Made by a program: the position numbers and the translations under genes. A stretch of 64,000 nucleotides of DNA from a virus (Duplodnaviria > Caudoviricetes). The stretch's first letter is position 1, and every line of letters begins with the position of its first letter. This document shows, in pieces, positions 3,484 through 17,075 of this stretch. Location of the stretch: IMG/VR virus record IMGVR_UViG_3300046671_000011, positions 9,861-73,860 of that record; one strand, written 5' to 3'. Below the pieces are notes generated by a model. That model saw nothing but the letters and a program-made list of their open reading frames with translations. It had not been told where the DNA came from and ran no database searches.

Positions 3484-5049
3484 TTACTTTAAGAACTCGC
3501 TGATCAGTGCAGGAGTATTCGTATCGAACCCTACAATATTGAGCGTACCCAAATCTTTGGGATCCCCAATACTAAACCCTGTACTTGTCATTCCGACTAC
3601 GATCAACTTCGCATTGATACCCGTCTTCTTACGGTAGTTAGCCAGAGCAACTTCAGGAGCCGTTCCCGAATTGGTCTCATTATCCGTATAGATAATGAAG
3701 GCGTCATACAGTCCCCCTGTTCGAAGGGCAAACTCGATTGCCGCCGCACAATTGGTGCTGCCAAAGTTACTCATCTGGACTTTTGCCATCGCCTGCTGTA
3801 GTGAGTCTCCCCGACCAATCCTAAGCTGAACAACTTGCTTTGAAAAGCCGACAATATTATAGTCTTTCTCTACACGAGCCGTGACCATACTCATACAGGC
3901 AGTACCCTGTGCAGGCGTAAACCCTGGAATTCCGGCAATCTCACCCGCTCCCATAGAGCCAGAGACATCAAGTCCCATCAGAATACGCTTACCTGTTGGC
4001 TGTACGTACTTGAATGATGAGAAGTAAGCCTGTTCGAGAGCGTCAATTATACGTGGGTTAACTTCCCATTCGCCGTGACCATAGTTCCCGTGTCCTGCCC
4101 CGTAAGTAATAGAAGCGGCTAAGATAGCAATCGGATGAATTCGGGCCTTCTCAATCTTCTTTTCATCCTCGATAGTATTCACCACAAAGCGCGACTCTTC
4201 ACTACCCATACCTAGTAAACCTGACTTGCTCATATTACCCAGGTTACGGATAATGGCGGTTAAGCCCATATTAGGCAGTAAAGCCTTCTGTACCTCGACA
4301 GAGTTTAAGAACTGAGTAGGAATAGCTTCACGAGGAAGCTGATACTCGGTTGCCAGTTGAGCGACTTCATGGGCATATTCCCGGCGCTTAGCAAACTCAA
4401 AGCCCAGGATAACCTTTGCGTCTTCCGAGATCCCATCAATACCACCTTTAGTTATCCAGTGGTAGACAGCTTGTCTTTCTGTCGAGGTGGGAATAGGATG
4501 TGAGAGCCGCAGCAAATCGCGGTGTGACCAGCCATCGCGTGACTGATATTTAACTACTTGGTAAGCGACATCACGGATAGATTTCTGATCATACCAGTTA
4601 GCTACCGCCCGACGCAGACCACGCCCCCAACCCCGCATACTGTCGATGTAGGCTGCAAAGTGAAAGAGGTGAGTCCCAATACGGCAAACCTTCGGCAGTG
4701 CCTTCTCTGCATAAATACGTGAATATGCTCCTGGATGAGAGAATGCGATTGCTAAAGCCAGAATAGCAGGCTCATTCTTAGGAGCACGACCACTATCACT
4801 GATCTCAACAATTGTGCGAACTGTACGTTCAGGATCTTCGTTCAAACAGCGCCAAACGACTTTAGCAGCATCTACAGTCAACTTCTGCTCAGAGACATAG
4901 TAGGTTCCGCCTTCGCTGCCGAGGATTAAAAAGCGCTCAAGATATTTCCAGTCATCAATCTTGAAAGCTTCCCCGCCACCATTGTTAGGAACCTTGTTGG
5001 ATGCAATCGAGGGCTTCTTGTTGAGGCCCAATGCTTTATTGTAGGTCAT
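3484..5049 (-). CDS. rsr: Ro60/Rsr TROVE-domain RNA-binding protein with vWA domain
   Basis: LERFLILGSEGGTYY, RIGTHLFHF, KYQSRDGWSHRDLLRLSHP, MGLTAIIRNLGNM, IHPIAIL, LDVSGSM (MIDAS), IIYTDNET; RBS GGAAGG before MTYNKALG. Confidence 0.95.
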   Translation of the reverse strand: MTYNKALGLNKKPSIASNKVPNNGGGEAFKIDDWKYLERFLILGSEGGTYYVSEQKLTVDAAKVVWRCLNEDPERTVRTIVEISDSGRAPKNEPAILALAIAFSHPGAYSRIYAEKALPKVCRIGTHLFHFAAYIDSMRGWGRGLRRAVANWYDQKSIRDVAYQVVKYQSRDGWSHRDLLRLSHPIPTSTERQAVYHWITKGGIDGISEDAKVILGFEFAKRREYAHEVAQLATEYQLPREAIPTQFLNSVEVQKALLPNMGLTAIIRNLGNMSKSGLLGMGSEESRFVVNTIEDEKKIEKARIHPIAILAASITYGAGHGNYGHGEWEVNPRIIDALEQAYFSSFKYVQPTGKRILMGLDVSGSMGAGEIAGIPGFTPAQGTACMSMVTARVEKDYNIVGFSKQVVQLRIGRGDSLQQAMAKVQMSNFGSTNCAAAIEFALRTGGLYDAFIIYTDNETNSGTAPEVALANYRKKTGINAKLIVVGMTSTGFSIGDPKDLGTLNIVGFDTNTPALISEFLK

Positions 5050-5078
5050 TATTATTTTCCTTCCCGTGAACACACGGA

Positions 5079-11530: not shown

Positions 11531-11769
11531 ATGTCTAACTTACCTTGTAACCAATACCATAATCCCGCGCAGCCTTCAGGAGTTAAATAAACCCCATTAT
11601 CTACACTATCTCTTATCCAACCCATACGAAGGAATTTGCCAAGCACTTTGGGATCAATCCCAAAAGGCGAAGAAAAGGTATTACGAGCATCCTTAAATCC
11701 AAAGTGGATATTAAGAAGGTCTCGATAATCATTATCGCTAATAGTCTTCGTCGTCATCTTCGGCTGCAT
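11521..11769 (-). CDS. hypothetical protein
   Basis: small ORF in chain, 3' end abuts tRNA-Arg. Confidence 0.4.
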   Translation of the reverse strand: MQPKMTTKTISDNDYRDLLNIHFGFKDARNTFSSPFGIDPKVLGKFLRMGWIRDSVDNGVYLTPEGCAGLWYWLQGKLDIPS

Positions 11770-12058
11770 CTATAACTGCTACTGCAATCTTGCCCCAAGT
11801 GAACTTCATTTCGGGGTTGAGAGATTTCCAGGGAGGTAACATGGCCTTTTTGTCTTCGCAATATACATAGGCTTCATATGCTACCTGAGCAAGAGATCTC
11901 TTTTCCAGCAGATCTGTAGTCTCATAGCTATAGCCGTCTGGTAAAACCTGCTCTAAAAGGTGGTTGTTAAATATATTGTCTACGACTTTTTCAGCGCTCT
12001 TCTCATCTTCAGCGTTGACTTCCATCTTAACTTCGACAATTACCGTATAAGTATTCAT
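11738..12058 (-). CDS. hypothetical protein
   Basis: ORF with GGAG RBS. Confidence 0.55.
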   Translation of the reverse strand: MNTYTVIVEVKMEVNAEDEKSAEKVVDNIFNNHLLEQVLPDGYSYETTDLLEKRSLAQVAYEAYVYCEDKKAMLPPWKSLNPEMKFTWGKIAVAVIDAAEDDDEDY

Positions 12059-12477
12059 TCAATCCTACTCCCATAGGTTTTTAGCATCTTTATAATCTCG
12101 TCAGCAAGTTCTTGATCGCTAACCCGCTCGCTTTCGGGCAAATCTGAATAGTGTGACCACATCTGCCGCTTCCAACGTTCAACACTCTCGACAGGCATTG
12201 TCCAACTACCATCAGAATTAAATGTACCCTTACTGAACATCCAGGTCATCCAGCGTGACCAGATGTCATGCTGAAGATTAGATAGTCTCTCTCGTATGCT
12301 TATTGTATTTTCAGTGAATCCTAGCCCAAACTCGGTTGCGGCATCTTCGCGTTCAATTAGATGACTTTTAAGTAGAGACATAACTTCGTTATCGTTGTGA
12401 GATGCGAATTCCCATGCGTCTTCACTATTCTTATATTGCTTAGCATACTCGGAACCGATTACTCTAAAGCTTCTCAT
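12055..12477 (-). CDS. hypothetical phage protein
   Basis: ORF coupled to neighbours. Confidence 0.55.
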   Translation of the reverse strand: MRSFRVIGSEYAKQYKNSEDAWEFASHNDNEVMSLLKSHLIEREDAATEFGLGFTENTISIRERLSNLQHDIWSRWMTWMFSKGTFNSDGSWTMPVESVERWKRQMWSHYSDLPESERVSDQELADEIIKMLKTYGSRIE

Positions 12478-13216
12478 ATTTTCCCTCTATTAGCAAATTC
12501 TCTGCACACCAAGCGATAATTCCATCACTTGTTTGAATCTTTACCCACTGATACCAGATAAGACCAAGAGGTTCAAGTATTCGATCATTATCAAGCACCG
12601 TGCAGTTTTCGAAAGGATTCATTTGTCCTATTCTCTTGCCCGCAGGACTTTCACGAAGATTGACGACTCCAACTGTATGAGCATCTCCTATAGAAAGATT
12701 ATCTCTAAAGCAGATACCCGTAAAAGGTGCTGGTGAAAGGGCTAATCCGGCTTTGTACTCTTGTATAGGTATATGGAAGTTATCACCCTTATTGAGATTA
12801 GATCCCCAAAAGTCAGGATCCTTCACGATTATATACTCATTAGGTTCATAACCAACCACAAGTACAAAGTGTCCGCTTTTATCTGAGAGATTTTGGCGCT
12901 TAGAGATAGACCCATAATGTATAAGTGCAATCACTGGTCTCTCATGGTCGATCTCAGAGATAGTCTTCTCTAATAAAAGCGCCTTATCTACATAAGATCG
13001 AATACCATATCGAGAGAGTAAAGCTACGAGTTCATAGTTGGTTAATCCCTGATCGTTAGTTGCCAATCGGGTTTGGCGTGAAAGGCTATCAGTGGTGCTG
13101 ACTTGTATACCTTTACCTGCTAAATACATACGAACACAAGCAGGCCCGCAGTCATTCCGATATCTCTTGGCATCAGGAATCTCTTGAGAAAAATAAGGAT
13201 AGTTAAGTAGTAGCAT
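12464..13216 (-). CDS. C39-like cysteine peptidase with C-terminal SH3b (putative cell-wall hydrolase/lysin)
   Basis: YFSQ...NDCGPAC, RPVIAL, GHFVLVVGY, VKDP; C-terminal VNLRESP...WVKI...GWC SH3 pattern. Confidence 0.75.
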   Translation of the reverse strand: MLLLNYPYFSQEIPDAKRYRNDCGPACVRMYLAGKGIQVSTTDSLSRQTRLATNDQGLTNYELVALLSRYGIRSYVDKALLLEKTISEIDHERPVIALIHYGSISKRQNLSDKSGHFVLVVGYEPNEYIIVKDPDFWGSNLNKGDNFHIPIQEYKAGLALSPAPFTGICFRDNLSIGDAHTVGVVNLRESPAGKRIGQMNPFENCTVLDNDRILEPLGLIWYQWVKIQTSDGIIAWCAENLLIEGKYEKL

Positions 13217-14843: not shown

Positions 14844-15158
14844 TTACTTTCCGTAATGTTCTTGCAGCATCTTATTACCAAGAGGTGTTATCTCAAACCA
14901 TTGATGAGGCTCATTATGTTGATCGGTATTGAGACTCAAAAACCAGCCAGCTTTTCGGGCTAATTCTTTTATTGCCGCCATCTCATTAGGTGTCGGATAG
15001 TTTTGAAGAGGTACTCGGATACGATTGATGTCATCTGCTTTTCTAATCGCTTGATTGATTAGTCTCTTGTACTCAGACAGGTCAACGTTTCTTAGGATTT
15101 TAGCCGCCTCTTCAGCGCTAATCAGATTTTCGTTTGGTTCCATCTGCTCAAGTGTCAT
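14844..15158 (-). CDS. hypothetical protein
   Basis: start moved to MTLEQMEP (RBS GAGGGAG); the listed 5' extension overlaps a Y-like RNA. Confidence 0.55.
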   Translation of the reverse strand: MTLEQMEPNENLISAEEAAKILRNVDLSEYKRLINQAIRKADDINRIRVPLQNYPTPNEMAAIKELARKAGWFLSLNTDQHNEPHQWFEITPLGNKMLQEHYGK

Positions 15159-15185: not shown

Positions 15186-15315
15186 AAGACGAACAAAAGG
15201 TAGAATTACGGGTTTTAATGCTTCCACTACACCAAAAGACACCGAGATGCCCCTGTGGGATTCGAACCCACGCCTAATCAGATAATTGATAACGTAATTC
15301 AAAACGGCTCGTCTT
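15186..15315 (-). ncRNA. YrlA-like Y RNA (circularly permuted tRNA-like domain)
   Basis: AAGACGAGC/GTTCGTCTT and GAATTACG/CGTAATTC stems enclose T arm GTGGG-TTCGAAT-CCCAC, then closed acceptor hairpin AGGGGCAT-CTCG-GTGTCTTT, then D arm TGGTG-TAGTGGAAG-CAT. Confidence 0.75.
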
Positions 15316-15317
15316 AG

Positions 15318-15389
15318 CTGCCAAAGTAGGACTCGAACCTACAACCCATCGGTTAACAGCCGATTGCTCTGCCATTGAGCTATTTAGCA
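15318..15389 (-). tRNA. tRNA-Asn(GTT)
   Basis: TGCTAAA/TTTGGCA, G73; ATCGG-CTGTTAA-CCGAT. Confidence 0.92.
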
Positions 15390-15392
15390 TTA

Positions 15393-15420
15393 AAAGGGGG
15401 AGGCGGTGAGATCCCCCTTT
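15393..15420. terminator. bidirectional terminator-like hairpin
   Basis: AAAGGGGGA-loop-TCCCCCTTT. Confidence 0.55.
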
Positions 15421-15565
15421 AAGTATTTATAAAACTTTTGGTGCTATCACCGTTAGCGCACCCTTAAAACTACACCTCGGTAGAAAGATAGGTGCTCTAT
15501 CTTTTTTGTTCAATGCTAGGTGTCATTCGCCTCAAGTTAGTACAAGACTTTGAACACTTCGCATG

Positions 15566-15638
15566 TCCTTCCTGATGGACTCGAACCACCAACAGCCAAG
15601 TTTACAGCCTGACGTTCTTCCAATTGAACTAAGGAAGG
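15566..15638 (-). tRNA. tRNA-Tyr(GTA), C1-G72 and no long variable arm
   Basis: CCTTCCT/AGGAAGG, A73; TCAGG-CTGTAAA-CTTGG; 5-nt variable loop. Confidence 0.85.
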
Positions 15639-15642
15639 AAAA

Positions 15643-15715
15643 TGGCGATGAAGGGATTCGAACCCATGACCTCCAGGCCAATTGACCCGGCGCTCTACCA
15701 CTGAGCTACATCCCC
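15643..15715 (-). ncRNA. tRNA-Ala-like RNA with aberrant self-complementary anticodon arm
   Basis: GGGGATGTAGCTCAGTGGTAGAGC 5' half and GGTTCGAATCC T loop, but 18-nt arm CCGGGTCAATTGGCCTGG and G3:G70 mismatch. Confidence 0.65.
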
Positions 15716-15925
15716 ATATATCGGACAAGTGTTGAAAAAGATATTGGCAGGTTTCCCTGCTCCACTTCATTTGGTAAATAGATAACCTTTTTCTGTCGGC
15801 CCGATCTTTCTTAAGTGTCTGGATAAAAGGCGTCTAGAGGTAAGTGGAATTTCGATTTCGCTCTCCAGGGAGAGTTACTTCTAAAATTTTTGGCTGATAA
15901 CTCTAAACAACGACCCAAACTTTGT

Positions 15926-16009
15926 AAAAAAACTGCTATTCATCGTCTTTGTGGATAGAACGACTCAGCGCGCGCACATGACTCGCGTTAGACTATTGTC
16001 GAATAGCAG
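15926..16009 (-). ncRNA. candidate Y-like small RNA
   Basis: 9-bp terminal stem CTGCTATTC/GAATAGCAG followed by T7, internal hairpins. Confidence 0.4.
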
Positions 16010-16021
16010 ATTTATGGATGA

Positions 16022-16119
16022 AAGTCGCTAAAGAATATTGCTCGTCCAGTTGAGTTTACTCTCTTGTAGTGGAGAGCATAGGATTCGAACCTATAACAGA
16101 TAACCTTTAACTACGACCC
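16022..16119 (-). ncRNA. YrlA-like Y RNA
   Basis: GGGTCG-(TAG)-TTAAAG / CTTTAG-CGACTT stem; T arm ATAGG-TTCGAAT-CCTAT; acceptor hairpin GCTCTC-CACTACAA-GAGAGT; D arm ACTC-AACTGGAC-GAGC. Confidence 0.8.
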
Positions 16120-16166
16120 ACATATAAAAGCCTGCGTTAGCAGGCATACATCACTGTTCGAATGTT

Positions 16167-16234
16167 AAAAACCGGATAAGGATTGCGGAGGGATATTGGT
16201 TTACTGATAGTAGATAACCCTCAACTTCGACCCG
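16167..16234 (-). ncRNA. candidate short Y RNA (YrlB-like)
   Basis: begins near predicted +1 with CGGGTCGAAG (GNCGAAG Ro-binding-type motif); CGGGT/ATCCG and GAGGG/CCCTC stems; 3' T5. Confidence 0.55.
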
Positions 16235-16243
16235 ATGTGTAAC

Positions 16244-16272
16244 AGTATAACACTCTGTTCTTTTTTAGTCAA
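16244..16272 (-). promoter_or_regulatory. sigma70-type promoter for the Y-RNA/tRNA cluster
   Basis: TTGACT-17 bp-TATACT with TG extension; +1 at about 16236. Confidence 0.8.
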
Positions 16273-16274
16273 GT

Positions 16275-17075
16275 CTATAGACCGTCATTGTCCGTGACTA
16301 AGCCTTTATAGAAGCTAAGATTAGCCAGGACGTTGCCGGGATCACCTCGATCATAAAGCTCGTCTTGCCAAGCTCCATATACTGCCGTGATATAAGGCTC
16401 TACAAGTCTGAGCATTGCTAGACTTGGTAGCCTGATTTCTTCCTGAGCATCGTCGGCACAGCGTAAGGTTGCATACTTGAGAAAGTTATGAAGATCGCAG
16501 TTGACTACTATCGTCATATACTGGATGCTGTAGGGAAGAAAGAAGCGGGCCATTTCCCGACTAATTCCTCTCTCGATAGCATGTTGATAGTTTAACCTAC
16601 CTACTTTAATCGTCTGTTCGAGTGTCTGTGAGAAGTAATTGCCAATCTCAGGTTCAAGATTTTCTCCACTCATCTGCTTATTTATCTTATGCTGAGTCCG
16701 CCAGGTCTGCGGTTGATAGAACTCGTCCTTTAACTGATGGTATCTACCACTCTCACTGTTAAACCTGAAAGTCCTGTGCCTGAGCAATTGGATGATAGCT
16801 ACTACAGGTAGTCTCATCTCGAAGGTCAAGGAGACCTGTTCGAAGGGGGAAGTATGTTTATCTTTCCATAAACGCTCGATCAGTTTCCGGTCAGACTCTT
16901 CTCCTTTAGAGATTCGATTGATCGAAGTTCTAGCAGCCATCGCTATCCATTCATCTGGTGAAGGAGCATCAGGGCGTAGAGGATCGGGCATCATCATCGC
17001 TAAGGCTACATACCCGATATCGTCACCATATACTTTGCGGTCAATATCAAGATAAGGCATTTTTGTCCTCGTCAC
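16275..17075 (-). CDS. thyX: FAD-dependent thymidylate synthase
   Basis: HTSPFEQ, QLLRHRTFRFNSESGRY, REMARFFLP, NFLKYATLR...AQEEIR. Confidence 0.93.
   Translation of the reverse strand: MTRTKMPYLDIDRKVYGDDIGYVALAMMMPDPLRPDAPSPDEWIAMAARTSINRISKGEESDRKLIERLWKDKHTSPFEQVSLTFEMRLPVVAIIQLLRHRTFRFNSESGRYHQLKDEFYQPQTWRTQHKINKQMSGENLEPEIGNYFSQTLEQTIKVGRLNYQHAIERGISREMARFFLPYSIQYMTIVVNCDLHNFLKYATLRCADDAQEEIRLPSLAMLRLVEPYITAVYGAWQDELYDRGDPGNVLANLSFYKGLVTDNDGL

Follow-up and report, generated by a model that had tools for sequence, protein, structure and literature searches.

The stretch of DNA analysed here, called the window throughout, comprises 64,000 nucleotides (nt) and corresponds to bases 9861-73860 of a 73.9-kb uncultured virus record (IMGVR_UViG_3300046671_000011). 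Nearly all of its genes are on the minus strand. An array of features (16272-15186), every one of them also on that strand, is flanked by thyX (16275-17075) and a 104-amino-acid open reading frame (ORF) starting at 15158; it contains five units resembling Y RNAs. Together with the RNA-binding ring protein Ro60, Y RNAs make up a conserved particle for RNA surveillance, the function of which is poorly understood in bacteria and more so in phages. Read along the minus strand, the array begins with a promoter, followed by the first unit (U1), a terminator-like hairpin, U2, a hairpin with a 9-base-pair (bp) stem and a run of seven U, U3 and U4; a tRNA with an 8-nt anticodon loop, tRNA-Tyr, a 175-nt spacer, tRNA-Asn and U5 complete it. 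Three of the five units are short hairpin RNAs (U1, U3 and U4) and two are of the YrlA type (U2 and U5). An initial annotation of this locus had proposed up to four Y-like RNAs, two YrlA-like and two shorter. The diversity of the repertoire and its two YrlA-like members stand, while the count does not, as positions 15920-15720 had been skipped. With U3 and U4 thereby missed, and with the 9-bp-stem element rejected as a Y RNA, the set consists of three short and two YrlA-like units.

Minimum-energy folding gives all five units one plan, in which a common handle carries a variable module. The outer part of the handle is a closing stem of 7-9 bp that ends in GGGY (GAGC in U5) and is followed by a bulged C; the motif GGGYCG or GAGCCG with its bulged C is shared by all five closing stems. 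Beyond the bulge comes a G-U pair, formed in 18 of 20 units of the family, and then a variable position, which is an A-U pair in most family units but only in U1 and U4 among the five in the window. In the inner part, a short and asymmetric internal loop leads to a second stem, 5-8 bp long, and to the sequence UUAUC, which opens the variable module and lies 20-23 nt from the start of the stem in every unit. The second stems have five different sequences, every one of them paired.

U1 (16171-16236), which had been read as a 68-nt Y-like stem RNA, starts CGGGUCGAAG and folds with the closing stem AUCGGGU/AUCCGGU, the bulged C followed by GAAG, the second stem GAGGG/CCCUC and UUAUC at 16217-16213; it ends in a tail of five U. 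In U3 (15817-15920) the closing stem is GUUUGGGU/AUCCAGAC, with GUUG after the C bulge, the second stem UUUAGAG/CUCUAGA, UUAUC at 15900-15896 and a variable module of 56 nt. U4 (15720-15805) has the closing stem AUCGGGC/GUCCGAU, the C bulge, GACAG, the second stem GAAAAAG/CUUUUUC and UUAUC at 15785-15781. These three units lack a tRNA-like module, contain a different set of small hairpins and correspond to the YrlB-like hairpin class. Both YrlA-type units, by comparison, enclose a circularly permuted tRNA mimic with the T loop UUCGAAU and a GG-containing D loop. U2 (16013-16122) is built on the closing stem UGUGGGU/AUCCAUA, the C bulge, GUAG, the second stem GUUAAAG/CUUUAGC and UUAUC at 16103-16099, and its tRNA-like arms stand behind GGGUCGUAG: a T arm (16094-16078), a closed acceptor hairpin (16076-16059) and a D arm (16054-16041). 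This structure had been described earlier for an RNA of 98 nt, whereas the closing-stem ends are 110 nt apart. U5 (15186-15315), the GAGCCG variant and the second such RNA of 130 nt that had been proposed, has the closing stem AAGACGAGC/GUUCGUCUU with its C bulge, the second stem GAAUUACG/CGUAAUUC, UUAUC at 15292-15288, a T arm (15271-15255), an acceptor hairpin (15254-15235) and a D arm (15232-15218). The arrangement by which the YrlA module is recognised, in which a T arm is followed by a closed acceptor hairpin and then by a D arm, all inside a stem, is thus present in U2 and U5. Fold z-scores are -3.15 for U4 and -3.0 for U5; those of U1-U3 (-1.3 to -1.7) are unremarkable.

No close DNA relative of the array was found (blastn against cultured phages gave tRNA matches only), and relatives were therefore fetched through the Ro60 protein; the flanking ThyX, used as a query, found no relatives. 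Nine phage contigs were obtained in this way, with Ro60 proteins 32-47% identical to that of the window, and RNAs with the same signature were found adjoining Ro60 in these related contigs. Two covariance models were built without any window sequence, R1 from seven short units adjoining Ro60 genes in five other phage contigs and R2 from ten long units taken from three contigs of other phages. A search of both strands of the window with R1 (E <= 10) returned four matches, all in the array: U1 (36.9 bits, E 1.4e-6, the best in the window), U4 (29.2 bits, E 1e-4), U3 (25.2 bits, E 1e-3) and U5 (18.0 bits, E 0.06). With R2, U5 (37.7 bits, E 6.6e-5) and U2 (32.3 bits, E 5e-4) were both in the top three, providing independent support for the two YrlA-like RNAs of the initial annotation. 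The third, at 34.2 bits, was a chimera of the U4 handle and the D arm of the next tRNA, and apart from it neither model had any other match in the window below E 0.1. When the filters were turned off, R1 scored U3 at only 14.9 bits and lost U5; this loss of units with long inserts is a limit of the model and not evidence against the units. Elsewhere in the window, a lone, non-coding T-arm-like sequence, GGUGGUUCGAAUCCACC (30640-30800, minus strand), lacks a Y handle and matched R2 only weakly and in part, with 12.6 and 9.7 bits. The exact DNA pattern GGGTCGNNGTTNANNGTTATC was also sought in viral contigs; its seven single matches, all within unrelated GC-rich sequence, were judged to be due to chance.

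Covariation across related phages, proposed earlier as a check, was assessed for 20 units aligned to R1. The covariation score was 0.69, compared with 0.25 in shuffles (0 of 500 reached 0.69) and at most 0.20 with slid partners, and 87% of cells were paired against 64% in shuffles, a pairing that is somewhat inflated by an alignment fitted to the model. Compensatory changes occur at 15 of the 19 pairs, e.g. GGGU..AUCC versus GGGC..GUCC. The Rfam YrlA model, another check that had been suggested, aligned U2 over its full length with 32.2 bits (E 8.5e-5 in a 1.25-kb search), below its gathering score of 69, and picked out no other unit, U5 scoring 12.1 bits. Ro60-adjacent units elsewhere are given only 24-37 bits by this model, which is therefore insensitive to this branch of the family.

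The Ro60 gene of the window (3484-5073, minus strand) is full length, encoding a TROVE domain and the Ro60 von Willebrand factor A (vWA) domain as identified with Pfam, and its product is the presumed protein partner of U1-U5. In a PDB sequence search it matched Rsr of D. radiodurans (2NVO, E 3e-115) and vertebrate Ro60 (9NEN and 1YVP, E ~1e-107); the match to the protein of Thermus phage phiLo reached only E 1e-5. Ro60 lies downstream of the RNAs on the same strand, its start (5073) being 10.1 kb from U5 and 11.2 kb from U1, which agrees with the earlier statement that the array is about 10 kb from the phage's own Ro60 gene and not adjacent to it. Searches with R1 and R2 found no Y-like units nearer to Ro60, nor any in the 9.9 kb of the genome outside the window. 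The interval separating Ro60 from the array holds six tRNA genes, small ORFs and the genes of a ribonucleotide reductase and an RNA ligase. The RNA ligase (PF09414; 9446-10120, minus strand) ends about 25 nt upstream of a tRNA-Leu. A Pfam scan of 30 neighbouring ORFs found no Pnk, RtcB or RtcA, so that a complete RNA-repair cassette is not supported.

The sigma-70-like promoter (16244-16272) occupies the 40-nt gap after the thyX stop and consists of TTGACT (16272-16267), a 17-nt spacer with an extended -10 TG, and TATACT (16249-16244), with 10 of 12 consensus matches. Pairing in U1 begins 7 nt beyond the end of the -10 element, and the predicted transcription start is approximately the first base of U1. 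The near-consensus promoter had thus been correctly placed upstream of the first stem RNA. The further suggestion that it alone drives the whole array is called into question by a terminator-like hairpin that follows U1 (16124-16145; GCCUGC-UAAC-GCAGGC at 16145-16130, then UUUUAU). A second promoter-like site at 15928-15900 was ruled out, as its -10 element would fall within U3. The long hairpin at 15926-16009, with the 9-bp closing stem CUGCUAUUC/GAAUAGCAG followed by seven U, exists as the initial annotation had described it, but not as a Y RNA: it lacks the GNCG bulged-C helix and UUAUC, has no R1, R2 or Rfam match and gives a z-score of -1.1. It is unclassified and probably a terminator.

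The three tRNA or tRNA-like genes read earlier in the array were confirmed. The first (15642-15716; Rfam tRNA 54.1 bits), to which ARAGORN assigns the anticodon 'aatt', lies 3 nt beyond the 3' end of U4. Its anticodon loop has 8 nt, its acceptor stem contains a G3-G70 mismatch and its CCA is encoded; it may decode four bases or be unusual in some other way. tRNA-Tyr (gta; 15565-15638; 60.4 bits) follows, and tRNA-Asn (gtt; 15317-15389; 69.7 bits) ends 1 nt before the start of U5. The spacer between the latter two (15390-15564, minus strand) is free of ORFs, contains several hairpins and has no family match; at its end, just before tRNA-Asn, is a 9-bp GC-rich terminator-like hairpin followed by UUUUAA.

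Many phages and bacteria carry Ro60-adjacent arrays of 2-8 such units. The earlier remark that single YrlAs are known in some phages understates the case, as Thermus phage phiLo has two Ro60-binding Yrl RNAs (PMC12135203). Among cultured actinophages, R2 gives 58-60 bits to the Ro60-adjacent YrlA-like RNAs of BearBQ, Comrade and Sparky, and R1 finds one short unit beside each long one. YrlAs of mycobacteriophages served as the examples from phages in an earlier study (Chen et al., 2014; PMC4201824), and the family is therefore the one described there. One related phage contig has five units upstream of Ro60, and three or four long units are found in Propionibacteriaceae. The array of the window is, as such, not very unusual: it is a larger-than-usual example of a known partnership and no new kind of system. 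Particular to it are the separation from Ro60, the placement in a tRNA cluster and the tRNA ends that abut U4 and U5.

The closest described RNAs are YrlA and YrlB of S. Typhimurium, M. smegmatis and mycobacteriophages (PMC4201824; RF02553). They likewise carry a 5' GNCG(AA)G motif in the closing stem, fall into the same two classes (T arm, closed acceptor hairpin and D arm, as in U2 and U5, or plain hairpins, as in U1, U3 and U4), and, as in the window, share the strand of Ro60, with several in one genome. Each species studied has two or more Y RNAs, one tRNA-like and one hairpin-like, and nearly all lie within 4 kb of Ro60 (Chen et al., 2014; PMC4201824). The window differs in having five units instead of the usual one or two, a distance of 10-11 kb from Ro60, scores that are all below the Rfam threshold and a GNCGAAG motif that is degenerate in four of the five units; with R2, its two long units score 38 (U5) and 32 (U2) bits against the 58-60 bits of the actinophage YrlAs. 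Thermus phage phiLo also has a phage Ro60 and more than one phage Y-like RNA, with a CGAA-bearing bulged stem (PMC12135203; PDB 9KOP, 9L5Y). Its Ro60 binds the two phage RNAs, Yrl1 and Yrl2, and, with them, the host polynucleotide phosphorylase (PNPase), as shown by experiment; the two phiLo RNAs are directly upstream of a Ro60 gene only distantly related to that of the window. In D. radiodurans, Yrn2, tRNA-Asp and Yrn1 are made as a single precursor (PMC4201824), so that there too Y RNAs, one with a tRNA-like module, are combined with a tRNA; Yrn1 and Yrn2 differ from the window units in adjoining rsr and in their arm order, and the Rfam Deinococcus_Y_RNA model has no match in the window. The set in the window belongs to the known Y RNA kind: it has the structural features of these RNAs, and departs from them in lying beyond the 4-kb distance and below the Rfam threshold.

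The region 16272-15186 (minus strand) is probably a non-coding cluster in which five Y RNAs of the YrlA/YrlB kind, interspersed with three tRNA genes, dock to the phage Ro60 in order to recruit partners to it or to gate it. The signature of sequence and structure, the covariation and the membership of a Ro60-adjacent family are observed; expression, processing, Ro60 binding and an effector role of U1-U5 are what we infer from them. U1-U5 would be transcribed together with the tRNAs and cut out partly by tRNA-processing enzymes, with RNase P and the tRNA 3'-end enzymes releasing U4 and U5. The solved X. laevis Ro60-Y RNA complex and the bacterial particle RYPER serve as models here: the handle may dock on the phage's own Ro60 ring, at its outer face, while the differing modules may gate this ring or link it to partners in the host, PNPase for example. 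In an infected cell the phage could thereby alter how RNA is degraded or quality-controlled. That one handle carries five different modules suggests multiple partners or regulatory states, and the two tRNA mimics could engage tRNA-binding proteins.

Several observations weigh against this interpretation. The motif GNCGAAN0-1G is exact only in U1 (GUCGAAG); it is off by one position in U2 (GUCGUAG) and U4 (GCCGACAG) and by two in U3 (GUCGUUG) and U5 (GCCGUUUUG), the GNCG core and the bulged C being present in all five. By the published expectation of about 4 kb from Ro60 on the same strand, the strand is as expected and the distance is too great. None of the units reaches the Rfam gathering score, and to this are added the lack of a close DNA relative and the inflated pairing of the fitted alignment. 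Promoter-like sites of equal quality number 16 in the window and 21 +/- 4 in shuffles; the promoter is therefore supported only by its position. Terminator-like hairpins also lie inside the array.

Some of these observations would be explained if the RNAs were genuine members of the Y family that do not serve the phage Ro60 and instead act as decoys or sponges for host Rsr, PNPase or enzymes that modify or cleave tRNAs. Such a role would account for a location in a tRNA cluster, 10-11 kb from Ro60 and not beside it, and it is compatible with the tRNA elbow mimic of two units and with the departure of four of the five handles from GNCGAAG. However, in all the related phage and bacterial loci that were examined the same handle immediately adjoins Ro60, a full-length Ro60 is kept on the same strand, and the YrlA-type RNAs, having no anticodon loop, would be unable to decoy anticodon nucleases. 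We consider this role unlikely. That the units are not stable RNAs at all, and serve a tRNA operon in cis, as spacers, terminators or processing signals whose folding into hairpins is fortuitous, appears decidedly improbable. The run of five U at the end of U1, the terminator-like hairpins and the unremarkable z-scores of U1-U3 (-1.3 to -1.7) speak for this reading, but plain spacers would not retain a covarying two-stem handle with fixed GGGYCG and UUAUC, a handle moreover common to Ro60-adjacent units of phages whose Ro60 proteins are only 32-47% identical.

The tRNA-like parts could also be decayed tRNA debris or tandem-tRNA artefacts, in which the T arm of one tRNA is joined with the D arm of the next, a class of false positives against which a warning has been given (Chen et al., 2014; PMC4201824). 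The array does sit in a tRNA cluster, and the chimera at 34.2 bits among the R2 matches is an artefact of this sort. Nevertheless, no tRNA call overlaps U2 or U5, the acceptor stems of both are closed by a loop, and each lies within two long covarying stems bearing the Y handle; debris is thus very hard to credit as their origin.

The handle also resembles that of animal Y RNAs and nematode stem-bulge RNAs (sbRNAs; RF00019 and RF01656). Like those RNAs, all five window units have a lower stem in which one C is bulged, and their loop opens with UUAUC at its 5' end; further likenesses are the GA opposite UU after the bulged C, the upper stem ending in GG(G) and the pyrimidine-rich 3' internal loop. 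UUAUC at the loop 5' end is a named conserved motif of nematode sbRNAs and vertebrate Y RNAs (PMC4450293, PMC4726728), and human Y4 and Y5 read GGUCCGA...GGGUUAUC/UUAUU. In the wider phage and bacterial family, UUAUC is exact in 28 of 37 phage units, and UUAUC or UUACC is found in 30 of 40 bacterial units. In a comparison with 4227 Rfam families, U1 and U4 both scored best with the nematode RF01656, at 19.6 and 16.6 bits against a cut-off of 38; sister units in a related phage contig (L020) reach 36.2 and 31.8 bits with RF01656 and 27.0 bits with RF00019, compared with cut-offs of 38. RF00019 had no match in the genome of the window, in a filtered search that also missed the 32-bit YrlA match and carries little weight. 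The window units differ from the animal RNAs in lacking the GUG/CAC upper-stem motif (having, e.g., GAGGG/CCCUC), in scores that stay below the cut-offs in all five cases, and in being served by other transcription machinery. Among the papers searched, none ties UUAUC to bacterial or phage Y RNAs. To our knowledge, UUAUC in animals has so far been tied only to DNA-replication activity. The resemblance in UUAUC and the bulged C is family-wide, not peculiar to the window, and does not establish common ancestry.

It is possible, though we regard it as doubtful, that the short phage units are true homologues of animal Y RNAs and sbRNAs, with the bulged-C helix and UUAUC inherited together with Ro60. 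If so, UUAUC would be an ancient protein-contact site, its function would be directly testable in a phage-bacterium system, and the published statement of Kowalski and Krude that the Y RNAs of bacteria have no homology to the vertebrate clades would be contradicted.

As annotated here, the phage invests in five different Y RNAs and keeps them with tRNA genes, away from the Ro60 gene. Taken with the related loci, this indicates that multi-RNA sets are the rule and not the exception, that public models (Rfam YrlA and Y_RNA) miss them, and that the handle, including UUAUC, is shared with animal Y RNAs. For annotation, Y RNAs should be sought throughout any Ro60-encoding phage genome, the 4 kb around the gene being too narrow a range. 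With their common handle, the five variable modules would provide a natural panel for host partners recruited by the phage Ro60 particle.

Various features of the related loci can be added. One long and one short Y RNA are found together in Gordonia phage BearBQ (L023, 2685-2904), Streptomyces phage Comrade (L024, 2029-2252) and Mycobacterium phage Sparky (L026, 2551-2768), upstream of an annotated 'Ro-like RNA binding protein'; neither RNA is annotated in GenBank, and in Sparky part of the Y RNA stretch is annotated as hypothetical protein gene 35 (locus 2789-2926). Another phage contig (L018) has eight Y-like units, two short and six YrlA-type, downstream of its Ro60 (11620-13020), with two short ORF-like stretches between them, and also a phage-encoded tmRNA (15319-15710). 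In three Poribacteria genomes (L030, 1442-1890; L031, 2191-2635; L033, 3555-3999) sets of four, in the order long-short-long-short, lie directly upstream of Ro60, adjacent units overlapping by a few bases. Beside the Ro60 genes of two related phage contigs (L020, 9716-9835; L014, 9068-9198) are complete tRNA-shaped RNAs with the normal, non-permuted order of arms, which Rfam scores as tRNA or tRNA-Sec with 25-41 bits; their anticodon arm is replaced by a long insert containing GGGCCGAAG/GGGCCGACG and (G/C)GUUAUC or GAUUAUC.

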